Below the pieces are notes generated by a model. It was not told the origin of the DNA and did not search any database. It saw only the letters and a list, made by a program, of their open reading frames with translations. Below, piece after piece: positions 6,404-46,232 of a stretch of DNA of 51,824 nucleotides. Source of the DNA: Patescibacteria group bacterium (GTDB lineage Bacteria > Patescibacteriota > Minisyncoccia > Phycocordibacterales > JAACPR01). Position 1 is the stretch's first letter. Every line of letters starts with the position of its first letter. Both the position numbers and the translations under genes were made by a program. Location of the stretch: positions 502,882 through 554,705 of the forward strand of contig JAKLEX010000001.1 of the NCBI GenBank assembly GCA_022711495.1, written 5' to 3'.

Positions 6404-6502
6404 TGCCGATAATTATAACAAATTTGCAAGATTTCCATAACAAAACACCGCGCAACCCGCGGTGTTTTGGAAACAAATAAACGCAATCAGCAATCTCACT
6501 AT

Positions 6503-10821: not shown

Positions 10822-10851
10822 AAAAAGCAAAGCCCTCAACTTAGTGAGGGC
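10822..10851 (-). terminator. Intrinsic terminator of the protamine-like gene
   Basis: GCCCTCA-N6-TGAGGGC (10832-10851) followed on the minus strand by TTTGCTTTTT. Confidence 0.65.
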
Positions 10852-10985: not shown

Positions 10986-11082
10986 TTTTATTTTGTTAAC
11001 TGATAAAAGTTTTCTTCCCTACTTAATTATCGCAGCATTCGAGCAGACCGAAAGACTTTTTTGAAAAAATATGTGGATAAGT

Positions 11083-11116
11083 TAAATTTTCTCAAAAATA
11101 TTTTTGAGAAAATTTA
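11083..11116. repeat. 34-bp perfect AT-rich palindrome
   Basis: TAAATTTTCTCAAAAAT|ATTTTTGAGAAAATTTA; TGTGGATAA (DnaA-box consensus) lies at 11072-11080. Confidence 0.85.
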
Positions 11117-11124
11117 TTTTAAAA

Positions 11125-19790: not shown

Positions 19791-20992
19791 ATGGTCACTT
19801 TAACAGAATTAAAAATTTCATCCATCTTTTGGGCGATAATGTTCCAATCGTATTTTTTTGAAACCATTTCAAAACCGTTTTTAACCAAATCCAAGCGCAG
19901 CTTTTCATCGTTTAGCAAGATATCAATTTTGGAAGCTAAATCGCGTGGGTCGCCCGGTTGAGCGAGCAGCCCGGTTTTTCTGTCCACAACAATATCCACG
20001 ATACCGCCAACTGGAGTCGCCGCCACCGGCAATTTGCTGGCCATGGCTTCCAAAAAAACATTTCCCAGCCCTTCCGACAAAGATGGGCGGCAAAAAATAT
20101 CGGCCACGGCAAAATATTGAACCAAATCATCATGAGTTACTTGCCCCTTAAAAATTACTCTTTCGAACAGACCAAGATTTTCTGTAACTCTCTTTAAATT
20201 ATCTTCAAGTGGACCTGCTCCCAAAATCAACAGTTTGACATTGGTCGGCAGAAAAACGAGGGAGCGGATCAGGTCTTCAATTCCATTTTTGTTTACTAGA
20301 CGCGAAGCGGTTATTATAATTTTTTCACTGCCAGAGACGCCCAATTCAGAGAGAATTTGTGGACTTTTTTCAGATTTCGCCAGAGAAAATTTCTCAACAT
20401 CAACCCCGTTCGGCACAACCACTATTTTGCTTCCACCCATTTTTTGGGCAAAACCGGCTAAGAAATTGGATATTGGCTGAACAACATCAGCTGAAGAAAA
20501 TATTTTTCTGTACATCGGCAAAATATAACGGACCTTTCTTTCAATTGATTCCGGCGAATTCCCTTCTTGAACAGATAAAACCAGTGGAGTTTTTTTTGAA
20601 ATCATCTTCAGAAACATCCCGGCAAAACCAGCCTGATTGGCCATCATTGACCAAATCAAATCATATTTATTTTTTCTATGCAGTTTCCAGGCTCGCCAAA
20701 ATATGGAAAATGGCGCCAGAATTTTGGCCAACTTGACGACAAGCGGAAGTTCTCCGGGAGTCGCGCCTTTAGCCGATAAACCAACCCGAAAAATATTGAC
20801 TGAACCCAGTTTCTCGCTGGAAGCCAAATTTTTATCAAACCGAAGAGTCACCATATCAAATTCGTACTTGTCGCCCAGACGATCGGTGATTTCCTTTAGG
20901 GCCACTTCCGCGCCGCCAACAAATTTTGGGAAATAAGCTATAGATAAAATTAGTACTTTTTTCTTTCTCGGATCCATATTATTCAATTCCAA
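19787..20992 (-). CDS. Glycosyltransferase family 4
   Basis: FVGGAE, SRLVNKNG, SEGLGNVFLEAMAS. Confidence 0.9.
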   Translation of the reverse strand: MELNNMDPRKKKVLILSIAYFPKFVGGAEVALKEITDRLGDKYEFDMVTLRFDKNLASSEKLGSVNIFRVGLSAKGATPGELPLVVKLAKILAPFSIFWRAWKLHRKNKYDLIWSMMANQAGFAGMFLKMISKKTPLVLSVQEGNSPESIERKVRYILPMYRKIFSSADVVQPISNFLAGFAQKMGGSKIVVVPNGVDVEKFSLAKSEKSPQILSELGVSGSEKIIITASRLVNKNGIEDLIRSLVFLPTNVKLLILGAGPLEDNLKRVTENLGLFERVIFKGQVTHDDLVQYFAVADIFCRPSLSEGLGNVFLEAMASKLPVAATPVGGIVDIVVDRKTGLLAQPGDPRDLASKIDILLNDEKLRLDLVKNGFEMVSKKYDWNIIAQKMDEIFNSVKVTI

Positions 20993-22883
20993 GAATTCTT
21001 TTTAGCTCTTTTTTAGGGACTTCTCTTTGTTCGTGAAACGCCTTTTGCGCTCTTTGTGTTTCGGATTTATCAGATGGCGCACCAGACAAATTATTCCTTT
21101 CCTGATTTGCAGGCTTTTTTTCTGACGCTTCGGACTTTTTATCTTCTATTTTGATTTTAACTTCTGTCTTTACCTTGTCTTCTGTTTTTATCTTATCTTC
21201 CGTCTTAGCAACAGCCGGCTCTTTTTTTAACACTGCCGATAGGGCTTCGCGCAAGGCATTTTTATTTTCCTGACTTGATGAATCTCGCGGATTCTTTGGA
21301 ATTTCGCTAAGAGAAAGGCCCGTCTCTACCGGCGGCGCCTGCGGCTTCTGATTAAGAGCTTTTTCCAGTTCAACTTTAGTTTTCTCGTCAATTACTCTGT
21401 TTTGTCTGGGTCGAAAATTATTGTTTTGCTTACTGTCTCTATTGTGTTTACCGTCTCTGGCGGCGTCCAAACCACGATTTTCTCCAAGAGTAAAACTGCG
21501 CTCACCGGTATTGCGCTCGCCGGGACCGCGCTCACTAGAATTGCGCTCGCCAGAACTACGCGGCTTAGCGGCAGCAATCTCTTTTCTTTCATCGGCAACA
21601 GATAAGTTCTTTTTGATCAATTCCTCCACTTGTTCCCGAGGATGAGCGTATGTCTCCCGTGAGGTTTTGATGATCTCATCAACATAACTTTTTTCCGGCT
21701 TTTCAAGAGGCGGGATAGATCGCGCAGAAAACGGATGAGAGCTGATTCCGTTTATCATCAATCTCAAATATATCTGGTAAGCACCAAGATTTACTATATC
21801 TTGAGCTACCAAAGTCGGCGCAAATTCTTTCTCCAAAACTTCGGCATCATAAGAACCAACCCTAAAAGTTATCAGGGTTCCGACGTTACCAAAGACAGCC
21901 GCTCGGACCTCGTCGGTCATCTGTTCTATATACTGGTGAGCGATAGTTAAATTAAGTTTATATTTTCGAGCTTCTGACAAGATATTGGCAAAGGATTCGT
22001 TGGCAAAGGATTGAAATTCGTCAACGTATAAATAAAAATTCGGCAGTTTTTCCAGTTCCCTGTCCGGAATATCGGCGCGCGACAAGGCGGCCAGATAAAT
22101 CTTAGTGATCAGCATACTACCAAGCAAATTGGCATTTTGTTCACCGACCCGGCCCTTGGACAAGTTAATGATGAGAATCTTTTTCTCATCCATGATCTTT
22201 CTCAAATCAAAGGTTGAGTTCGGCTGACCAACGATATTTCTAATCAACGGGTTAGAGGTAAATTGGCCGATTTTGTTTTGAATGGCCGGCGTAGCTTCCG
22301 CGGCAAAACGATCGGTATATTTGGCAAATTCGTTTGTCCAAAATGATTTAACCGACGGGTCTTTAATGTTTTCAACAACTTTGTTGCGAAAATTTTTGTC
22401 GGACAACATGCGATTAACATCAAGCAATGTCGCCTCTGGATATTCAAGGAGCGCCAATAAAGTATTGCCCAAAATATATTCCATTCGAGCCGACCATGCA
22501 TCAACCCAAATCTTTTTGAAAGTACTCATCAGGCCCGAGACAACCAAGTGTCGTTTATCATAACCGACATCTTCCATGACATTAAAAGAAATCGGATATT
22601 CCATATCAAACGGCGCGAAGTATAAAACGTCTTTTATTCTTTCCTCCGGTATATATTCAAGAAGAAGTTCCGCGGTTTTGCCGTGCGGATCAATGAAAGC
22701 AAAGCCATTTCCGTTGCGGATATCCTGCGCGGCCATGTTTTCCAGCAAAGTTGACTTGCCCATACCAGTTTTACCGATGACATAGACGTGGCGAGTTCTG
22801 TCGCCGGCTTTTATACCAAAACGGACGCGACGATTGCGGGCGTCGGTATCGGCGAAATATGTGATCTGGTCCTTATTTTCCAT
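20979..22883 (-). CDS. VirD4/TraD/HerA-like P-loop ATPase with a long low-complexity C-tail
   Basis: Walker A GKTGMGKS, IDPHG, Walker B YLYVDEFQSF, LSEARKY...IAHQY. Confidence 0.85.
   Translation of the reverse strand: MENKDQITYFADTDARNRRVRFGIKAGDRTRHVYVIGKTGMGKSTLLENMAAQDIRNGNGFAFIDPHGKTAELLLEYIPEERIKDVLYFAPFDMEYPISFNVMEDVGYDKRHLVVSGLMSTFKKIWVDAWSARMEYILGNTLLALLEYPEATLLDVNRMLSDKNFRNKVVENIKDPSVKSFWTNEFAKYTDRFAAEATPAIQNKIGQFTSNPLIRNIVGQPNSTFDLRKIMDEKKILIINLSKGRVGEQNANLLGSMLITKIYLAALSRADIPDRELEKLPNFYLYVDEFQSFANESFANILSEARKYKLNLTIAHQYIEQMTDEVRAAVFGNVGTLITFRVGSYDAEVLEKEFAPTLVAQDIVNLGAYQIYLRLMINGISSHPFSARSIPPLEKPEKSYVDEIIKTSRETYAHPREQVEELIKKNLSVADERKEIAAAKPRSSGERNSSERGPGERNTGERSFTLGENRGLDAARDGKHNRDSKQNNNFRPRQNRVIDEKTKVELEKALNQKPQAPPVETGLSLSEIPKNPRDSSSQENKNALREALSAVLKKEPAVAKTEDKIKTEDKVKTEVKIKIEDKKSEASEKKPANQERNNLSGAPSDKSETQRAQKAFHEQREVPKKELKRILGIE
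21498..21557. repeat. 4 x 15-bp degenerate tandem repeat encoding (G/S)ER-xx pentapeptides
   Basis: gcgctcaccggtatt / gcgctcgccgggacc / gcgctcactagaatt / gcgctcgccagaact. Confidence 0.8.
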
Positions 22884-22964: not shown

Positions 22965-24263
22965 TTATTCCAAAATCAGATAAACGTCTCCGGCTCCTAG
23001 AGTCAAGATAAGGCGGTCTTTCTCTATTTCAGCCAACTTTTTCCGGGCGGTATCAAAATTTTCCAAGACTTCGGCACCCGGAACACGTCCCGCGATTTTC
23101 TCTGACGAAATTGACGGATCGTTTGGTTCGCGAGCGGCGTAGATCGGTAATAGATAGACTTTGTCAAATTTCTTGAGAACAGCGACAAATCCACCAAAAA
23201 GAGTTTTTGTTCTGGAATATAAGTGCGGCTGGAAAAAAACCACGATTTTTTTGCCAGGATATTTTTGCCTTAGGGCCTCCAGGGAAGCGGTTATCTCCGT
23301 TGGATGATGCCCATAATCGTCATAGATAATCGCTCCACGCTTATTTTTCCCGCGGGGTTCCAGGCGACGCCAAGTCCCGCAAAAATTAGCCAAGCCACGT
23401 TGAGCTTTTTTGAGATCGACTTTCAAGATTTTTGCCACCGCCAAAGCGCAGGCGGCATTTCTTCTGTTGTGTTCGCCGGGGACTTTCAGTTCTGGCACGG
23501 CCGACAAAAAATCCCGCGTATTTAGACACTTCTTTTCGTATTTTTTGACAATTTCTTCAACGTTTGCGTCATTGAAATCGCAGACGATTTTCCCGCGCGC
23601 CGGAACTTTGTCGGCCATTTCCATGAAAGCTCCCTTTATGTCAGCCAGATCTCGGTAAAAATCAAGGTGGTCTTCCTCAATGTTGGTAATAACCAAGATG
23701 GACGGCTTGAGATTTAAAAAGGATTTTTTGTATTCACAGGCTTCAGTCAAGAATATCTTTTTACTTTCTCCTTCTCCCGGCAAAAAATTAGTTTCATCCC
23801 CTGACAATAAACTGCCAACAATTACGTTAGGTTTGATGCCAGCGGCGCGCAAAGCTGAATTTATCATGGCGGTTGTCGTCGTCTTTCCGTGTGTTCCAGA
23901 AACCGCAATAGTTTTTGAATCGCCAGACACCAGACCCAACATGCCAGCGTAGGTAAAAACCGACAAATTTTTCTCTCCGGCTTTTAAAAGTTCAGGGTTG
24001 TCGCTGGAAATTGCTAGCGTATAGACGACACAATCAACATCGTCGGCCAGATTCTTTTCTGAGTGTCCGATAGAAACAGCGATTCCTTCTTTATTGAGCG
24101 ACTTAGTTATAGCGGATTGAGATACATCAGAACCAGTAACAATTTTATCTCTTGATTTCATCAGGCGCGCCAAAGCCGACATGCCGATTCCGCCGATACC
24201 AATAAAATGAACCCGGGAATAATCGGCCAAGGATTTTTTTCTTTTAGACTTTCCAGATTTCAA
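22965..24263 (-). CDS. murC: UDP-N-acetylmuramate--L-alanine ligase
   Basis: HFIGIGGIGMSALA, SGTHGKTTTT, DDYGHHPTEI, FQPHLYSRT. Confidence 0.96.
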   Translation of the reverse strand: MKSGKSKRKKSLADYSRVHFIGIGGIGMSALARLMKSRDKIVTGSDVSQSAITKSLNKEGIAVSIGHSEKNLADDVDCVVYTLAISSDNPELLKAGEKNLSVFTYAGMLGLVSGDSKTIAVSGTHGKTTTTAMINSALRAAGIKPNVIVGSLLSGDETNFLPGEGESKKIFLTEACEYKKSFLNLKPSILVITNIEEDHLDFYRDLADIKGAFMEMADKVPARGKIVCDFNDANVEEIVKKYEKKCLNTRDFLSAVPELKVPGEHNRRNAACALAVAKILKVDLKKAQRGLANFCGTWRRLEPRGKNKRGAIIYDDYGHHPTEITASLEALRQKYPGKKIVVFFQPHLYSRTKTLFGGFVAVLKKFDKVYLLPIYAAREPNDPSISSEKIAGRVPGAEVLENFDTARKKLAEIEKDRLILTLGAGDVYLILE

Positions 24264-24267
24264 ATAA

Positions 24268-25536
24268 TTATGTTCCGCTCTGTTTATCGGCGGCCGGCTG
24301 ATCGTCCTCTATGGCTCCGCGAGTATATCTGTTGCTTGGACTCCACAACATCCACGAACCCAATCCAACATCATAGACGGCTTGAATTTGAGCTTTAACT
24401 TCGACAACATCATAATTTCCACCATAATCAAAATCTTGTATCCACGGACGCAATTGTTCGGCAGAAACATGTTGACGAACTAGTTCTGGCGTGGAAGTCG
24501 CTGTATCAAAAACCGCGACTCTGTCCACGGCAGAGCTCATGACAAAATTAATAAGTTCATAAGGATATTTATTTGGGTCGGTCCAGCCGTTGAAACGCGC
24601 CGGATAATGAGACGGATAAACCATCGGTGCGACAAAATCAAAATAAGGCAAAGTTCTCTCTAAAACTTGGCCGATATTCAAGTCGTCGGTGTTGGTCGTA
24701 ACCATCCCAAACAAATCCGCCGAAGTAATCATCGGGAAATCCTTTCCTTTATTATATTTAGATATTTCTTCCGACAAATATCTGAAGAAATTTTCCAGAG
24801 CCAGTTGTTTGCCCAGAACTGGTTCTCTGACTAAAAGATCATTGCTGAACGGAAAGAAGACGTCTTTCATGTTTCCATCAGAAGGAAATCTGATGTAATC
24901 AAAGTTCAACTCGTCAAAACCTTGATCGTGAGCCTCTTTAGCAATGGTTAAAATATAATCCCAGTATTCCTCGGCACTAACGTCAATAAAACTTATGCCC
25001 TTATAATCCTTCCAGAGTGAGCGATCACTGGCTTTTTGAACGGCTAAATCTGGACGGCGCTTCGCAAAGAAAGGATCTTGGAAAACAGTTATTCGGCCAA
25101 TGACATAAATATTTTTACTGTGGAGAAGCTCAATAAAACTGAACATGTCCGTCGCCCGGCAGCCAGTAGCGCTAACTCCGACCAAATCCGGATTATTACT
25201 CTCAAAAGAGATCGTGCCGCTGAAATCCTTGATATCAATAACTATGGAATTAATCTCTGTCTCCTCAATCAAGGAAACTAGATCTTCCCTGAAGGTCGGC
25301 GTGCTGGCGACACAAGCAGTCATATAAACGGCCTTGACCGGCTTCGGGGTTCCTATATGTTTTATGACCGGTGCTGACTCGCCCAAATTTTTGCCGGCTC
25401 CAACGGCGGAATTACCATCAATCTGGTAATTTATCGCCAACATTTCAGGTGCGATAAAAAACAAGACGATCGTCGCCGCCAAAAACAGCGCCCCGACGAT
25501 AAATACAAATATTTTATTGAACTTCTTTTGGTTCAT
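24268..25536 (-). CDS. Membrane-anchored putative glycoside hydrolase (DUF4015-like)
   Basis: N-terminal TM; VIDIKD, FDELNFDYIRFP, PMVYPSHY, RPWIQDF motifs. Confidence 0.8.
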   Translation of the reverse strand: MNQKKFNKIFVFIVGALFLAATIVLFFIAPEMLAINYQIDGNSAVGAGKNLGESAPVIKHIGTPKPVKAVYMTACVASTPTFREDLVSLIEETEINSIVIDIKDFSGTISFESNNPDLVGVSATGCRATDMFSFIELLHSKNIYVIGRITVFQDPFFAKRRPDLAVQKASDRSLWKDYKGISFIDVSAEEYWDYILTIAKEAHDQGFDELNFDYIRFPSDGNMKDVFFPFSNDLLVREPVLGKQLALENFFRYLSEEISKYNKGKDFPMITSADLFGMVTTNTDDLNIGQVLERTLPYFDFVAPMVYPSHYPARFNGWTDPNKYPYELINFVMSSAVDRVAVFDTATSTPELVRQHVSAEQLRPWIQDFDYGGNYDVVEVKAQIQAVYDVGLGSWMLWSPSNRYTRGAIEDDQPAADKQSGT

Positions 25537-25954
25537 TTGCTGATTCGTCCGTCGAGTTCGCCGACTCCGCTGATTGTTCAGAGAGTTCGGCTGATTCGGC
25601 GACTTCCTCTTCAGACTCTTTCACCTCTTTCATCGTGTTGTCCTCTTCGGCAGGGATTTCCGGTGATATTTCTTCAACATCAGGTGCCGGTTCCTCCGCT
25701 AAAAAATCAACGCTGACCGAGGCGTCCGGAGTAATTTTTTCCGGCTGATGCTCAACAAAAATATTTTGATCAACATCTGGTTTGTCCGAAAGCCTCTTCT
25801 CTTTCAAGATTCTAAATTTTTCATGAAGGCCGATGGCAATCAACAGAACGGCCAGAATTATATTTATAAAAACCTTGAGGCCAGATGGAATACCCCAAAA
25901 TTGATTGATAACTAACAATATACCAACAAAGAAAATTATTTTATAAGTCTTCAT
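25514..25954 (-). CDS. Small 2-TM membrane protein with acidic disordered tail
   Basis: Hydrophobic hairpin around WGIPSGLK followed by an E/S/A-rich tail; extended -10 lies 9 nt upstream of ATG. Confidence 0.7.
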   Translation of the reverse strand: MKTYKIIFFVGILLVINQFWGIPSGLKVFINIILAVLLIAIGLHEKFRILKEKRLSDKPDVDQNIFVEHQPEKITPDASVSVDFLAEEPAPDVEEISPEIPAEEDNTMKEVKESEEEVAESAELSEQSAESANSTDESANEPKEVQ

Positions 25955-25992
25955 ATTCGACTGATTATAACAAAAAGACGATTTAAAAAAAG

Positions 25993-26682
25993 TCAGTGAA
26001 CGATGACGACAAATTCGCCGCGGATTTTTTCCGGAGAGCTCTTTAGTTTTTCCGCCAATTCGGAAGCCGAGCCAATCAAGACTTCCTCAAAAATTTTTGT
26101 CACTTCTCTGACGATTATGACTTCTCTTTTGGGCTCAAATTCCGCCAATGAGTTCAATGCTTTCAAAATCCGGTGCGGTGATTCAAAAAAGATAAAGGCC
26201 GCGCCTTCACTTAAATTCCTGAACATTTCTCGAAAAAACGTTTGTCGTCCTTTCTTATGAGGAGAAAAACCGGCAAAGTAAAAGCCTGATCCGGCTAGCC
26301 CAGCGACGGAGATGGCCGCCGTCAAAGAGCTCGGGCCTGGAACAGAATGAATCTTCACCTCCGGCAACTCTTGTCTGATTCGTCTGACCAGTTTCCCGCC
26401 GGGATCGGAGACGGCTGGTGTTCCAGCATCAGTAACCAAAGCCAAGTTCTTTCCTTCAGCCAACATCTTAAAAATATTTTGATAGACCGATTCCGGACTA
26501 TGCTCGTGAAAACTTAAAATTTTGGTTCTTATATTGAGATAATTTAAAAGTTTTCTGGTCACCCGAGAATCTTCAGCTAGAATTAGATCAACTTCACCGA
26601 GAAGGCGGACGGCCCTAAAAGTGACATCCTCCAAATTCCCAATTGGAGTCGCGACGATATATAGATTAGACATTAAGCCCAT
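25993..26682 (-). CDS. rsmI: 16S rRNA C1402 2'-O-methyltransferase
   Basis: LYIVATPIGNLED, AEDSR, DAGTPAVSDPG, FESPHR, RGEFV. Confidence 0.95.
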   Translation of the reverse strand: MGLMSNLYIVATPIGNLEDVTFRAVRLLGEVDLILAEDSRVTRKLLNYLNIRTKILSFHEHSPESVYQNIFKMLAEGKNLALVTDAGTPAVSDPGGKLVRRIRQELPEVKIHSVPGPSSLTAAISVAGLAGSGFYFAGFSPHKKGRQTFFREMFRNLSEGAAFIFFESPHRILKALNSLAEFEPKREVIIVREVTKIFEEVLIGSASELAEKLKSSPEKIRGEFVVIVH

Positions 26683-26704: not shown

Positions 26705-28222
26705 TCAAATTCCGCGGAGAATTTTTATGTCCGCGCCAAGAGCATTTAGTCGGCTGGCAATTTCTTCATATCCGCGGCGAATGGAATAAACGTTTCTCAA
26801 AATGGATTTACCGGGAATAGCGATCATGGCCATAAGAATAATTGTCGCTGGGCGAAGCGCCGGAGGACAAACAATTTGGCCAGGCCTCAAATCGGTCGGC
26901 CCGGTAATATAAACCCTATGCGGATCAGCCAGATTCATATTGAATCCCAATTTTGACAGTTCCATAAAATAAATCGCCCGATTCTCCCACATCCAATCAT
27001 GAATAAGGGTCGTGCCCTTGGCAAAACCGGCGATCGTGGCGAAAAAGGGCAAATTATCCGTGTTGATACCCGGGTAAGGTTGCGCGTGGATTTTATCCTC
27101 CAGGGCCGTCAGTTCCGATGGTTCAACTTTTATGTCAACCAGATTCGTTTCTCCGTTTTTCGATTTATAGATGCGGCTCTTTTTATATTTCAATCCCATC
27201 TTCTCCAATTTAAGCAACTCCAACGATAGAAAATCTATCGGGCACCTTTTTATATTAAGTTTGGATTTTGTCACAATCGCCGCCGTCAGCCACATCATCG
27301 TCTCTGTCGGGTCTTCGCTGACGTGGTGATGAACCGAAGTGTTTATGTCCGCCTTTCCTCTGATGACCAGGGTCGTCGTGCCGATACCCTCAATTTGAAC
27401 CCCAAGTTTTTTCAAAAAGAAACAGGTGTCCTGGACTTGATAATTGGCCGAAGCGAATCTCACGATTGTCTCTCCGGGAATCCTGGCCGCGGCAAGCAGA
27501 ACGTTTATGGTCGCGCTATCGCTCATCTCGTATAAAACGATGTCGGCTGAAACAAGTTTAGAGCGCGAAACCTGATAGTGGTCAGAACTTGTTTTTATTT
27601 TCACGCCAAGTTTCTCCAAACCATACTGATGCGCCGCAATCGTTCTCGCTCCCATTTTGCAACCACCGGCATTTGGTAATTTGAAAGCTTTTTCATAATG
27701 TAAAAGCGGACCAATCAAATAAAGGCTGGATCGAATTTTTTTGGCCGATTCATCAAATAACTTGCTAAGTATAAACTTTTTAGGCGGACAAATCTCCAGA
27801 CCGTGACCCTTTAAGCGCCTGATTGAGACACCAATGGCCGTCAGAAGTTCTATGACGCGATTTATTTCTTCTATTTGCGGAACGTCGTGGATGACGCTGG
27901 TGCCGCGATTCAAAAGCGAAGCAAAAATAAGAGCCAACGCGCCATTTTTTGAAGTATTGGTACAGACAGTTCCTCTTAATTTTTTGCCGCCATTAATTTC
28001 AAAATCCATGGAGTCGGAAATCTCTATGATCTGCCGATTCAAAACCCGGCTGATTCTTGAAAGTTCTTTGGTGGTGAAATTTTGTTTACCGTTTTCCATC
28101 CGAGCGATGGCACTTTGGGAGGTCTTTAATATTTTGGCGAATTCACCCTGCGTAAGAGTTTTGCGTTTTCTCAAATCTTTGATAAAGTTTCCAATTCTTT
28201 TTTGATCACCCATTTTTGACAT
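26705..28222 (-). CDS. murA: XRE-type HTH fused to UDP-GlcNAc 1-carboxyvinyltransferase
   Basis: About 70 N-terminal aa IKDLRKRKTLTQGEFAKILKTSQSAIARMENGKQN; then SKN, GGCKMGAR (catalytic Cys) and YPGINTD. Confidence 0.9.
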   Translation of the reverse strand: MSKMGDQKRIGNFIKDLRKRKTLTQGEFAKILKTSQSAIARMENGKQNFTTKELSRISRVLNRQIIEISDSMDFEINGGKKLRGTVCTNTSKNGALALIFASLLNRGTSVIHDVPQIEEINRVIELLTAIGVSIRRLKGHGLEICPPKKFILSKLFDESAKKIRSSLYLIGPLLHYEKAFKLPNAGGCKMGARTIAAHQYGLEKLGVKIKTSSDHYQVSRSKLVSADIVLYEMSDSATINVLLAAARIPGETIVRFASANYQVQDTCFFLKKLGVQIEGIGTTTLVIRGKADINTSVHHHVSEDPTETMMWLTAAIVTKSKLNIKRCPIDFLSLELLKLEKMGLKYKKSRIYKSKNGETNLVDIKVEPSELTALEDKIHAQPYPGINTDNLPFFATIAGFAKGTTLIHDWMWENRAIYFMELSKLGFNMNLADPHRVYITGPTDLRPGQIVCPPALRPATIILMAMIAIPGKSILRNVYSIRRGYEEIASRLNALGADIKILRGI

Positions 28223-28223
28223 G

Positions 28224-28255
28224 TTTCTATTATATCACAGATGATATAATAGAAA
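28224..28255. promoter_or_regulatory. Perfect 14-bp inverted repeat (candidate operator / bidirectional promoter) between murA and murB
   Basis: TTTCTATTATATCA-caga-TGATATAATAGAAA; each arm carries a TGA-TATAAT extended -10 pointing outward. Confidence 0.75.
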
Positions 28256-28289
28256 TGTCGGAGCGGTAGTGTTACTATAATTGAAACCC

Positions 28290-29309
28290 ATGAAAATATT
28301 AGAAAACTACGATCTCAAGTCTCTTTCTTACCTGAAAATCGGCGGGGTGGCGCGTTACTTTGTTGAGATTGAAAAAATAGAAGAATGGCAAAAAATAATT
28401 GAAATTCGCGACAAAGAACGTCTGCCGATCATTATGGTCGGCGAGGGATCCAACACCGTTTTCAACGACGGATTTCACAATAAGATTTTCGTCAAAATCG
28501 GCTCGGATGAAATCTTAAAAGTCTACGAAGACAGAGACGGAGTTAATATCAATGTCGCCGGCGGCACTAACTGGGATAAATTGGTTGAATGGGCGGTAAA
28601 ACACAAATTTTCCGGATTGGAATTATTGTCAGGCATTCCCGGAACGGTCGGCGCTGCGCCGGTTCAAAATATCAGCGCTTATGGGGGAAGCCTTTTTGAC
28701 ACCTTAACTCACATAAAAGTTTTTGATCTTAAGACAGAGGAACTATATGAATTAAACAATCAAGAATGCGAGTTCGGTTATAGAAATAGCTTGGTGAAGA
28801 AAAATCCCGGAAGGTTCGCAATCATCAGTGTTTCTTTCAGATTAAGTAAGGATAAGCCGGCTTTACCAAGATACAAAGATTTGGCCTTATATTTTCTTAA
28901 AAAGAGAAATAAAACGCCAACGATCAGAGAAATCCGGCAGGCCGTACTTGATGTCAGAAAAGAAAAACTGCCAGACCCGAGGACAGAGCCGAACTGCGGT
29001 TCCTTCTTCTTAAATCCTATTGTTGATATAGAGACCGCCAAATCACTGGCTAAAAAATTTGGGGATATGCCACAATTCCCTATTTCATTAGGAGAGATAA
29101 AGCTATCGGGCGGTTGGCTAATAGAAAAGTCAGGGTTCAAAGGAAAAGATTTTGGTAATCTGAAAGTTTCGCCAAAAAACGCGCTTATAATTATAGGCAA
29201 CGGTCGGGCGACTTTTGAAGATTTAGTTTCTCTTAAAAAAAGAATCATTGATGGCGTTGAAAAAAATTTTCACGTCAGACTTGCGCCAGAAGTTGGTTTC
29301 GTGGAGTAA
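28290..29309 (+). CDS. murB: UDP-N-acetylmuramate dehydrogenase
   Basis: GEGSN, GIPGTVGAAPVQNISAYG, FGYRNS, NCGSFF, RLAPEV. ATG 28290 lies 8 nt after TATAAT. Confidence 0.95.
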   Translation: MKILENYDLKSLSYLKIGGVARYFVEIEKIEEWQKIIEIRDKERLPIIMVGEGSNTVFNDGFHNKIFVKIGSDEILKVYEDRDGVNINVAGGTNWDKLVEWAVKHKFSGLELLSGIPGTVGAAPVQNISAYGGSLFDTLTHIKVFDLKTEELYELNNQECEFGYRNSLVKKNPGRFAIISVSFRLSKDKPALPRYKDLALYFLKKRNKTPTIREIRQAVLDVRKEKLPDPRTEPNCGSFFLNPIVDIETAKSLAKKFGDMPQFPISLGEIKLSGGWLIEKSGFKGKDFGNLKVSPKNALIIIGNGRATFEDLVSLKKRIIDGVEKNFHVRLAPEVGFVE

Positions 29310-40422: not shown

Positions 40423-40535
40423 GGTAAGTAGATTATAACAAAAAAGTTCTGAAAAGACTTTTTGAGGTCCCCCGCAGATCTTTCCGTCGCAACCTCTCAG
40501 ATCTTTACAAACAAAGACCTCTTTCTTTCAAACCG

Positions 40536-41957: not shown

Positions 41958-41977
41958 TTGTAGAAATTATACCAAAA

Positions 41978-42116
41978 AATCTTCACAAAAACTTTTGATA
42001 GACTTTCGCAGGACGATTTTGCAAGGTTTCGCCGAAGGCGGAAAAATCGTCCGGGAACAGCGCGGCCGCTCGCTGGATCGGCTGACGCGGATTTCGAAAA
42101 AGTGTTTGTGAAGATT
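41978..42116. repeat. Structured intergenic repeat, copy B (inverted relative to copy A)
   Basis: Core 42004-42085; closed by a different 12-bp stem AATCTTCACAAA / TTTGTGAAGATT. Confidence 0.85.
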
Positions 42117-42135: not shown

Positions 42136-42250
42136 CTTGTCCTGGCGACTAGCTACTCTCCCTTTTACAGTACCATCGCCGCTACGGTGCTTGACTGCCG
42201 TGTTCGGAATGAGAACGGGTATTTCCACCGCGCTAAATCACCAGAACAAG
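42136..42250 (-). rRNA. rrf: 5S rRNA
   Basis: CCCGTTCTCATTCCGAACACGGCAGTCAAG...GATGGTAC...GAGAGTAG motif; terminal stem CTTGTTCTGG / CCAGGACAAG. Confidence 0.93.
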
Positions 42251-42614
42251 ACACTGAATTTTATACAATCGGGAAATTGTATTTCCACGAAACAAATCTT
42301 AGAAAAGTCTGATTTCTAGATTTCCTAATGAGATCGATTAATTAGTACGCCTTGGCTGAACACATTACTGTGCTTACACCTAGCGCCTATCAACGTAGTA
42401 ATCTCCTACGGATCTCAAACGATTCCTAATCTTGGGGCTAGCTTCATGCTTAGATGCTTTCAGCATTTATCTAAACCCGACATAGCTACAGAGCAATGCT
42501 CTTGGCAGAACAGCTCTCACACCAGAGGTCGGTTCACCTCGGTCCTCTCGTACTAGAGGCAACCCCCCGCAAGAATCAACGCCTACAGCAGATAGAGAAC
42601 CAACCTGTCTCACG

Positions 42615-43046
42615 CATGCCAATCACCTGTTGCCAGATGCATCGGACTAGATCTTCGCTTTTCACAAAAAATTGCCAACTTCGTGAAAGGCAGCCGGTTA
42701 TTAGTCTCTACGGGTCTGTGATGATTTCAAATGAATATCACTCCCCTCGGAATTGTCTTCGGTTCATTTCGTAAATCTATAAATTATAGATAGCGAAACT
42801 TGCTAAAGATTTTCCCGATATTAACCGACTTTTTCTTTCTTTGTTTGTTTGAGCGCTTGCGCGCGTCACAAAGAAGACCGCCGTGAATATTGATTTTCTA
42901 CACATGTTTACTCAACATGTTTTAGACAAAAAGACCTAAACATAATAACACTTCTTCTACATTCGAATTCGATGTTCGTATTGGTTTGATAACTCGCCTC
43001 TAGGATTCAGATTGGTTCATGAGCCGAAAAAATTTTCCGCTCATGA
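42615..43046 (-). other. Group I intron at 23S position 2593 (432 nt, no homing endonuclease ORF)
   Basis: Exon ...CAGACCGU | intron ...GCAUG | CGUGAGAC. P AAUAUCGGGAA, Q AAUUCCGAGG, R GUAGAGACUA, S AAGAUCUAGUCC; P3 GUCGGUUA/UAACCGGC; IGS UUCACG-GCGGUCU gives the U.G splice pair and P10; GCAA-capped P9. Confidence 0.92.
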
Positions 43047-43709
43047 ACGGTCTGAACCCAGCTCACGTAACTTTTTAATTGGCGAACAGCCAAACCCTTG
43101 GGACCTTCTCCAGCCCCAGGATAAGTTGAGCCGACATCGAGGTGCCGAACACTACCGTCGATATGAACTCTTAGGTAGTACCAGCCTGTTATCCCCAGGG
43201 TAACTTTTATCCGTTAATCTCTGGCCGCGTCTAAAGCGTACCATCGGTTCACTATGTTCTGCTTTCGCACCTGCTCGTCATGCACGACTTGCAGTCAAGC
43301 CAGCTTGTGCCATTACACTATCGGCACGATTTCCATCCGCGCCTAGCTGACCTTAATAAACTCCTCCGTTACTCTTTAGGAGGATAGCGCCCCACCAAAA
43401 CTACCCACCAGACACTGTTCCGCGCCGTTTTTGCCGGCGAGGTTAGATTGTACATTTTTACAGAACGGTATTTCACTGACGACTCCACTTTTCCCAAAAG
43501 AAAAGCTTCAAAGTCTCCCGTCTATGCTACGCAGTAAAAACGTACAGCCAATGCCAAGTTGTAGTAAAGCTCCTGGGGTCTTTCTGTCTTGCTGCAGGAA
43601 GGCGGCATCTTCACCGCCATTGTATTTTCACCGAGCAAGTCCTCGAGACAGTTCCCCAGTCGTTACACCATTCGTGCGCGTCTGAACTTACCAGACAAGG
43701 AATTTCGCT

Positions 43710-43954
<245 letters not shown>

Positions 43955-44787
43955 CGGGGCTTATATCAGTCAGCACCAAACATTTTAGAAACGAATTTCT
44001 TCGCGCCCAAAATGTTTGGCACCGCCGATATTTGACCTTCCGGCATTGGTCAGGTGTCGCCCTCTATACATCATCTTACGACTTCGCAGAGAGCTGTGTT
44101 TTTGGTAAACAGTCGCCAGGGATTCTTTAGCTGCGGCCCCATAACTTAATACAGGGCAGGCCTTATCGCTAACTTACGGCCGCTTTTTTGCCGAGTTCCT
44201 TGAGGACCTCTCACTCGTTCGCCTTAGTCTTCTCGACCAAACTACCTGTGTCGGTTTACGGTACGGATTGTTTTAAATTAAGCTTAGAAGTTTTTCTGGG
44301 AAGCCTTTTTTATTCTGTCTCTCTTGGCGAACCGCAAGATTCTGATATCGAATCGGCCTGATGTCTTCCGGATTTTCCTAGAAGACAGCCTCTCGACTTC
44401 AACCCAAATCCAATAATGGGCAGAACATAATAGACTCCGTCACTCCATCGCATCTAAAACAAGTACTGGAATATTAACCAGTTATCCATCGGGTTCGGCT
44501 TTCGCCATCCCCTTAGGACCGACTAACCCTTCGCTGATTGTCATTGCAAAGGAACCCTTAGTTTTTCGGCGTGCGGGGTTTTCACCCGCATTGTGGTTAC
44601 TCGTGCCAACATTCTTACTTCATAACGCTCCACCATGGGTCACCCCTTTGGCTTCAACGCGGATATGAATACTCTCCTACCGCTCGCACTTTTCCGAAGA
44701 AAAATACAAGCCCTCAGCTTCGGTACTATACTTAGCCCCGATTATCTGCGGCGCGGAATCTCTTGACGAGTGAGCTGTTACGCTATC

Positions 44788-44819
<32 letters not shown>

Positions 44820-45393
44820 TCGTTGTATAAGAAATTCCACCTCCTTAAGTGCACTTAGTATAAATTTTGGGACCTTAGCTTGAGATCTGGACTGTTTTCC
44901 TTTTGACCGACGAACCTTAGCGCCCGTAGTCTTACTGCCAAGCTCTAACTTTGGGTATTCGGAGTTTGGTAGGCGAGATGAGATTTCTCCCTATTCTAAC
45001 CTTCCAGTGCTCTACCCCCCAAAGGAACACTTGACGCTATACCAAAATATATTTCGGAGAGAACCAGCTATTTCCAAGTTCGATTAGCTTTTCACTACGA
45101 CCCACAAGTCATCCGAGCGAGTTGAACAACACACCGGTTCGGGCCTCCTCTGATATTTCTATCAGATTCACCCTGCTCATGGGTAGATCACTTGGTTTCG
45201 GGTCTGATACGTTATACATTTGTTCGCGCTATTAACACTCGGTTTCCCTAAAGCTCCGTCCCATAGGACTTAGCTTGCAAAACGCATCAACTCGTTGGCT
45301 CATTCTTCAATAGGCACACCGTCGAGGTATTGCTACCTCTTCGATTCCTTGTAGACATATGGATTCAGGTCTATTTCACCGCCCTAATCGGGC

Positions 45394-45435
<42 letters not shown>

Positions 45436-46232
45436 TAAAAGAATATTTAGCCTTGCCGGTTAGTTCCGGCAGCTTCACCCGAGCTATTCGTGTCTCGAGA
45501 TACTCAAGAGCTGAAACAAAAGAGAGAATTTGCTTTCATCTACAGGACTATTACCTTTTGTAGTATTTCTTTCCAGAAATTTCGATTAACAAACTCCTTT
45601 GTAACTCTTCTCGTGCAAGCACGACGTTTCAGTCTTACAACCCTCATCCCCCACCATCTAATAAAAGATAGCTTTTTGGGATAAGTTTGGGCTTCTTCCT
45701 TTTCGCTCGCCGCTACTAAGGAAATATTTCTCTACTAATGCAGAGATTGTTTTCTTTTCCTCTAGGTACTGAGATGTTTCACTTCCCTAGGTTTGCTCCT
45801 TCTGGTCAAGCCAGAAGGTGCCGCACAAAATGCGGCGGGTTTCCCCATTCGGACATCTTCGGATAAAAAGTTGCTATACACTTCCCCGAAGCTTATCGCA
45901 GCTATGCTACGTCCTTCATCGCTTCTTTTAGCCAAGGCATCCACCATACGCCCTTAGATTCCCATTAGGAAATCTAAAAACCACTTAACTTTTCTACTGT
46001 TTGTTTGTGAAAATACAATTTCCTGATTGTATTTACAATTATTCAATTTTCAAATAACAGTCGTCCCGATTTTTCTCATTCCGTACCCAGCATCCCAAAC
46101 TAGTCGCCTAATTCGGGACTCTCGATAAAGAAAGACCGCTTCGTCTGAAGCGGCCAGTTCTCGCGTACGCGTTAAAATCACGTTCAGACTGGCCGTTTCA
46201 AACTTAGATTTTCCCTCATATTTGTAGGAACG

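Follow-up and report, generated by a model that had tools for sequence, protein, structure and literature searches.

A MurA enzyme carrying an N-terminal helix-turn-helix domain probably represses its own gene through a conserved 18-bp palindrome

The murA gene in a 51.8-kb stretch of contig JAKLEX010000001.1 from an uncultured Patescibacteria bacterium (the whole stretch analysed, referred to as the window) encodes the enolpyruvyl transferase (EPT) MurA fused to an N-terminal XRE/Cro-type helix-turn-helix (HTH) domain, and is preceded by a palindrome in the spacer that it shares with the divergent murB gene. The fusion protein, HTH-MurA, is probably bifunctional, combining an active MurA with an HTH that binds an 18-bp operator of its own and mediates negative autoregulation. 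Repression by the enzyme of its own gene, and usually of murB too, is very probable; binding, dimerisation and repression are functions that we infer from sequence and from comparison of related loci. The elements concerned are as follows.

26705..28222, minus strand: HTH-murA coding sequence, 505 aa plus stop; the start is the first ATG (MSK...), which is kept in close relatives
26750..27994, minus strand: MurA (EPSP_synthase fold) domain, residues 77-491; the codon of the catalytic Cys188 is at 27659-27661
28025..28183, minus strand: XRE/Cro-C1 HTH domain (Pfam HTH_3), residues 14-66
28094..28123, minus strand: recognition-helix segment TSQSAIARME, residues 34-43; no variation at Q36, S37 or R41 among 79 homologues
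28224..28255, no strand: full perfect inverted repeat with 14-nt arms and a 4-nt loop; conservation in relatives does not extend to the outer 7 nt of either arm
28231..28248, no strand: conserved 18-bp putative operator core, TATATCA-N4-TGATATA; TATATCATCTGTGATATA when read on the murA strand
28229..28237, minus strand: predicted extended -10 of murA, TGATATAAT, 6 nt before the ATG
28242..28250, plus strand: mirror-image extended -10, TGATATAAT, directed toward murB
28273..28281, plus strand: murB-proximal -10-like element, TACTATAAT, 8 nt before the murB ATG, a spacing as in other promoters of the genome
28290..29309, plus strand: murB (FAD_binding_4 and MurB_C domains), divergent from murA

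Both domains of the protein were recognised by profile search, HTH_3 (Pfam PF01381) at residues 14-66 with an E value of 1.4e-11 and 44.7 bits against a curated cut-off of 23, and EPSP_synthase (Pfam PF00275) at residues 77-491 with an E value of 9.6e-46, covering profile positions 2-416 of 417; the linker between the HTH and MurA is approximately 10 residues. The best structure match is a MurA (E 8e-50), as are 32 of the 33 PDB sequences that match at E ≤ 1e-20, the weakest being NikO. Because the structure alignment begins at query residue 74, which aligns to MurA residue 4, the HTH is a pure N-terminal addition to MurA. The E. coli residues K22, C115, R120, D305 and R397 correspond to K92, C188, R193, D389 and R483 of HTH-MurA, all of which are present and invariant in an alignment of 79 homologues, in agreement with the preliminary description of this locus, which had reported an N-terminal XRE/Cro HTH on a MurA with its catalytic Lys, Cys and Asp. 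HTH-MurA is apparently an active MurA enzyme and a DNA-binding domain in one polypeptide. Like canonical MurA (E. coli, E. cloacae; 1uae, 1ejc, 3vcy), it has a full-length EPT fold and the five catalytic equivalents; unlike canonical MurA, it carries 73 additional N-terminal residues of HTH and linker, and its identity to solved MurA is low. An AlphaFold2 (AF2) monomer model based on the 79 sequences (predicted local distance difference test score (pLDDT) of 90, predicted template modelling score (pTM) of 0.83) places the MurA body confidently, and the HTH is modelled as four helices (residues 3-20, 25-32, 36-43 and 51-61; pLDDT 81-88). Within the HTH, R18, Q25, Q36, S37, R41, E43, G45 and N48 are invariant in the 79 sequences; these include positions taken as DNA-contacting, and their invariance parallels that of the palindrome. 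Both the HTH and the EPSP_synthase domain are carried by 119 of the 120 best database matches to HTH-MurA, which are named Paceibacterota, Parcubacteria or Patescibacteria, and on this evidence a large Paceibacteria/Parcubacteria group has the HTH fusion as its standard murA.

The murA/murB spacer (28223-28289) is 67 bp long and contains a perfect inverted repeat with arms at 28224-28237 (TTTCTATTATATCA) and 28242-28255 (TGATATAATAGAAA) that are 100% complementary. Approximately 0.004 such repeats are expected by chance in the window (a rough estimate from base composition), and no other perfect, AT-rich, non-terminator repeat of its size exists in the 51.8 kb. The preliminary description had placed in this spacer a 14-nt-arm repeat that holds the murA -10 and a mirror-image -10 toward murB, and the coordinates, the complementarity and the presence of TGATATAAT on both strands all agree with it. 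It had also extended the arms by GACA/TGTC and had taken the palindrome as the operator unit. The extension is present (28218-28221 and 28256-28259) but requires a 2-nt bulge (TG, 28222-28223) and is not conserved in relatives, and it is the inner 18 bp, not the 14-nt arms, that are conserved; the 14-nt arms with their extension were therefore ruled out as the functional unit. An RNA or DNA hairpin was likewise ruled out, since the dyad lies upstream of the predicted transcription starts, its sequence itself is conserved beyond pairing, and asymmetric variants are frequent. The window contains a single dyad site with two or fewer mismatches.

Conservation of the 18-bp dyad was assessed in 80 loci from species-representative genomes and 80 from metagenomes, counting co-occurrence with at most one mismatch per arm and leaving the four central bases outside the search pattern. 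The dyad was found upstream of the fused murA in all 76 species-representative loci with upstream DNA and likewise in the metagenome loci (approximately 75 contigs), giving approximately 150 of 150 loci overall; this was the check that the preliminary description had put forward for the association of the dyad with HTH-murA. Among 135 non-redundant sites, 87 match at 14 of 14 arm positions, 38 at 13 and 10 at 12. The centre, although unselected, reads YATR in 123 of the 135 sites, so that the whole 18-mer is palindromic, and the information content is high and symmetric over 18 bp and falls below 0.8 bit directly outside. Only three other sites matching at 13 or more of 14 positions were found in 834 kb of flanking DNA, and the dyad is specific to mur promoters. 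Three loci (L004, L063 and L077) have a second dyad directly upstream of a divergent murC.

Dyads were also seen beside a family of small open reading frames (ORFs) of 75-90 aa with the motifs ..GPF/YxV.., ..EHV.L.. and ..IHFGS.., which adjoin murA or murC (L099:2764-3033, L097:2772-3020, L105:2562-2807, L116:3276-3524, L045:1652-1876 and L077:525-764). The dyad, or a site resembling it (TATATCATATATGTGATA), repeatedly precedes members of the family, and TTGAC is often found immediately before this site; in the L077 clade a dyad-like sequence lies just after the murA stop codon, ahead of a small ORF of this family. No member was found in the window.

Each arm of the dyad is also a perfect extended -10 (TGATATAAT), the promoters of this genome are of the extended -10 type and lie 6-9 nt before the ATG, and a divergent murB is present in 46 of the 76 related loci, where the distance from its ATG to the left arm is usually 8 nt. 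The palindrome might thus be only two back-to-back extended -10 elements for divergent leaderless murA and murB, and go unrecognised by the HTH; the retention of the dyad in an HTH-less lineage (see below) would fit this explanation. Several features of the sites make it highly improbable. Both arms are kept in 11 loci that lack a divergent gene, where the upstream neighbour is a same-strand gene or a tRNA with a terminator, and conservation extends to the 4-nt spacing and the YATR centre. The palindromic positions are far more conserved than the last two bases at the 3′ end of the -10 hexamer, and in TGAGATATAAT variants the -10 is displaced relative to the arm. The commonest form among the other promoter-like sites of the window is TGTTATAAT, whereas both dyad arms read TGA in the form TGATATAAT. 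The dyad also accompanies the gene for an HTH-bearing pseudo-enzyme in four loci (L168-L171, described below). On the persistence of the arms without a divergent gene, the conservation of the palindrome above that of the -10, the form of the arms and the shifted -10 of the TGAGATATAAT variants, the 18-bp element is taken to be an operator that overlaps the core promoter.

The position of the element is consistent with repression. The typical promoter of this genome is TTTTGTTATAAT at 8-9 nt before the ATG without a Shine-Dalgarno sequence, so the mRNAs are read as leaderless or nearly leaderless, as appears to hold for most operon-leading genes of the genome. Since the modal gap between the end of the dyad and the ATG among relatives is 8 nt, the predicted start falls on the A of the ATG, and the murA transcript of the window is predicted to be leaderless, starting at or beside the A of the ATG (28222). 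A search for RNA sequencing runs covering the region returned none. HTH-MurA, presumably as a dimer, would bind TATATCA-N4-TGATATA at 28231-28248; the palindrome would occupy approximately -26 to -9 of the leaderless murA promoter, with the right arm forming the TG-extended -10. Because the right arm is the extended -10 of murA, binding should repress: the bound dimer would occlude the TG and the -10 and exclude RNA polymerase, resulting in autorepression. In the common arrangement, with the murB ATG 8 nt from the other arm, one dimer could shut both divergent genes. Control of murB had also been proposed for the window itself, and the mirror-image -10 on which it would act is present; murB has its own -10, however, and begins 41 nt from the 18-bp core, an arrangement less direct than in most relatives, so that the effect on murB is probably weaker here.

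The same 41-nt distance would suit a mainly activating or dual role of HTH-MurA at the dyad, exerted for instance on a divergent mur operon, as would locus L168, in which the dyad lies approximately 45 nt upstream of a divergent murD start, outside the core promoter and at a distance typical of activators. We consider such a role very unlikely, since the dyad overlaps the TG and -10 of the HTH-bearing gene itself and ends, in the modal case, 8 nt before its ATG, a position that normally occludes RNA polymerase, and XRE-family proteins are typically autorepressors.

Autorepression by HTH-MurA gains support from relatives that have lost catalysis. An exhaustive search with the isolated HTH found HTH-EPT proteins without the Cys loop, encoded at L168:10001-11518, L169:9975-11477, L170:5663-7180 and L171:3498-5003, in which the equivalents of R91, C115, R120 and R397 are lost and the HTH, N93 and D389 are kept. 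We take N93 and D389 to be UDP-sugar contacts, as in MurA structures, and the lost Arg and Cys residues presumably form the phosphoenolpyruvate (PEP) site. In all four loci the gene is divergent from a mur operon that has a separate catalytic murA, only 25-28% identical to the protein of the window, and the dyad (13-14 of 14 positions) lies 0-11 nt before the ATG of the HTH-bearing gene. On the tree these proteins form a long-branched clade inside the HTH-bearing group. Having lost catalysis but kept the HTH and the EPT fold, along with the operator and the mur neighbourhood, these apparently dead HTH-MurA-like proteins can, to judge from their sequences, only be regulators. Their existence supports DNA binding for the whole family and hints at a role of the EPT fold in sensing or dimerisation. 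Additional Cys-less members (P0148, P0182 and P0194) have very long branches.

Covariation between the recognition helix and the operator points the same way but is suggestive only. On a tree of the MurA domain alone, S35A arose twice (L070; L063/L091), accompanied on both occasions by a T-to-A change at half-site position 5, and A at this position never occurs together with Ser35; L077, with S35T, has G in both arms. The pattern looked clean in the first 80 loci and became weaker after 80 more were added. The TGAGATA variant was ruled out as helix-linked because it follows clade and not helix type.

Several observations weigh against autorepression by HTH-MurA. Locus L085 has Ala35 with a wild-type dyad, T to C at half-site position 5 also occurs in Ser35 backgrounds, and the covariation test is not significant, as with only two independent events a sign test cannot reach significance. 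The centre of the dyad in the window, TCTG, is an outlier (1 of 135 sites). In the AF2 monomer, linker residues 62-71 are of low confidence, and the model neither docks the HTH at a defined place on MurA nor gives any sign of dimerisation or domain coupling. The main evidence against a simple form of autorepression comes from an HTH-less murA lineage (L105-L108 and L164-L167, sister to L077), in which 12-13 of 14 dyad positions are retained directly upstream of murA (L105:1166-1183, L107:206-223, L108:683-700 and L164:9975-9992) and the flanking 10 kb on each side contain no HTH gene. In this lineage, either something else binds the dyad or the dyad works as a promoter.

This lineage, in which L105-L108 retain the dyad across appreciable divergence, is the ground for considering that the dyad is a real operator used by another, unlinked regulator, the HTH of MurA having some other target or role. 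Against this stand the co-occurrence of fusion and dyad in approximately 150 of 150 loci, the presence of the dyad on the promoters of HTH-bearing genes that no longer encode an enzyme, and the suggestive covariation at residue 35. The other HTH-less lineage behaves differently: P0088, which is nested beside the protein of the window on the tree and has lost the HTH, keeps TGATATACT as its -10, whereas its left arm has decayed to TGTATTA. The earlier expectation that the dyad would be absent with plain murA is thus borne out only in part, by the decay of one arm in P0088, and fails for L105-L108 and L164-L167. No close stand-alone homologue of the HTH came out of a word-indexed search; searching exhaustively with the HTH did return short proteins, most of which, when inspected, continue into MurA sequence and look like truncated or frameshifted fusions, leaving P0125, P0133 and P0138 as possible stand-alone HTH genes. 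Taken together, an unlinked regulator appears quite unlikely. The top matches to the isolated HTH in a library of 1.84 billion proteins were P0122 (1002 aa), P0123 (703 aa) and P0124 (1923 aa), long proteins with 7-10 tandem XRE-type HTH stretches.

Whether autorepression by HTH-MurA would respond to metabolites is a more speculative matter. DNA binding may, we tentatively propose, be modulated by the MurA domain through its ligand (UDP-GlcNAc, PEP or UDP-MurNAc) or its conformation, which is plausible because MurA opens and closes and forms a UDP-MurNAc 'dormant complex' (PMC9975281). The candidate sensing states would be the open and closed forms and the 'dormant' form with UDP-MurNAc and PEP-Cys. 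It is possible, though somewhat doubtful, that HTH-MurA is a metabolite-sensing trigger enzyme, in which the state of MurA would set the affinity of the tethered pair of HTH domains and provide direct end-product feedback on the transcription of murA, murB and, in some lineages, murC. The pseudo-enzyme relatives, in which the EPT fold, N93 and D389 persist despite the loss of the Cys and Arg residues, give an indirect hint of such sensing.

Known trigger enzymes in which a DNA-binding domain forms part of the protein include BirA (biotin ligase and bio repressor), PutA (ribbon-helix-helix and proline dehydrogenase) and NadR. HTH-MurA resembles them in joining a metabolic enzyme to a DNA-binding domain, with a putative operator on its own or its pathway's promoter, which suggests feedback of pathway state on transcription, and it differs in combining an XRE/Cro HTH with an enolpyruvyl transferase of the peptidoglycan precursor pathway. 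Ligand-dependent DNA binding defines BirA, PutA and NadR, whereas the likeness of HTH-MurA to them rests on sequence. As in XRE/Cro repressors and antitoxins (434 Cro/cI, HipB, PezA), an HTH_3 fold is paired with a palindromic operator over its own promoter, with half-sites approximately one helical turn apart as in the classical systems, and the nearest solved sequences to the HTH are DBP48, PezA and HipB; in those systems the partner is a small dimerisation or antitoxin domain, whereas here it is a 430-residue enzyme.

BzdR of Azoarcus sp. CIB has an XRE-type HTH and a non-catalytic, shikimate-kinase-derived effector domain that senses benzoyl-CoA; it exemplifies the evolution of a regulator out of an enzyme, and a bifunctional 'missing link' was built artificially in the BzdR study (PMC3602430). 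HTH-MurA shares with BzdR an N-terminal XRE-type HTH joined by a linker to an enzyme-fold domain; unlike BzdR, the protein of the window keeps all MurA catalytic residues checked and in this resembles the synthetic 'missing link', whereas the Cys-less proteins of L168-L171, with an enzyme-derived domain without catalytic residues, are closest to BzdR itself. Plain MurA, bifunctional HTH-MurA and dead HTH-MurA-like regulators beside a replacement murA would form a series from enzyme to transcription factor. Such evolution has so far been approached with synthetic chimeras, as in the BzdR work (PMC3602430), and the active fusions, HTH-less derivatives and dead fusions offer a natural test bed for it.

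MurA catalyses the committed step of peptidoglycan synthesis and is the target of fosfomycin. Known controls of MurA are post-translational, through ClpCP/ReoM/PASTA-kinase and the UDP-MurNAc 'dormant complex' (PMC9975281, PMC12077105), and none of these acts via DNA binding by MurA itself; full-text literature searches yielded no account of an HTH-MurA fusion. A MurA acting on its own promoter would, if true, be a new control of cell-wall precursor supply and among the few identifiable regulatory circuits in Patescibacteria, which have tiny genomes and few transcription factors. The putative operator is short, invariant and easily tested in vitro.

Downstream of murA, the following genes lie on the same strand.

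22965..26682, minus strand: same-strand genes downstream of murA
25993-26682, minus strand: TP_methylase (rsmI-like)
25514-25954, minus strand: 146-aa ORF with its own TGTTATAAT ahead of it
24268-25536, minus strand: DUF4015
22965-24263, minus strand: murC

Joint control of murA, rsmI and possibly murC from the murA promoter had been suggested. An internal TGTTATAAT precedes the string of 146-aa ORF, DUF4015 and murC, which leaves murC potentially independent of the murA promoter, and for murC the suggestion was not supported in the form given. The general promoter form of the genome is TTTTG(T/G)TATAAT, with examples in the window at 6404-6425, 25955-25975, 40423-40443 and 41958-41978.

A gene at 20979-22883 (minus strand), with its own TGTTATAAT promoter, encodes a 634-aa TrwB/HerA-like ATPase (type IV coupling protein / DUF87) and sits between murC and a run of glycosyltransferase genes. 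The rRNA genes of the window are unlinked and all on the minus strand (31758-33253, 42140-42245 and 42321-45970), with the 16S gene approximately 9 kb from the 23S-5S pair and SecDF, glycosyltransferase and FtsW genes in between; the 23S match spans 3650 nt against a model of 2925 nt and therefore contains approximately 700 nt of insertions. A further AT-rich palindrome at 11078-11121, with 24-nt arms that are 92% complementary (TAAGTTAAATTTTCTCAAAAATAT / ATATTTTTGAGAAAATTTATTTTA), lies in a 720-bp non-coding stretch between ORFs ending at 10823 and 11542, and may be another operator or an origin-like element.

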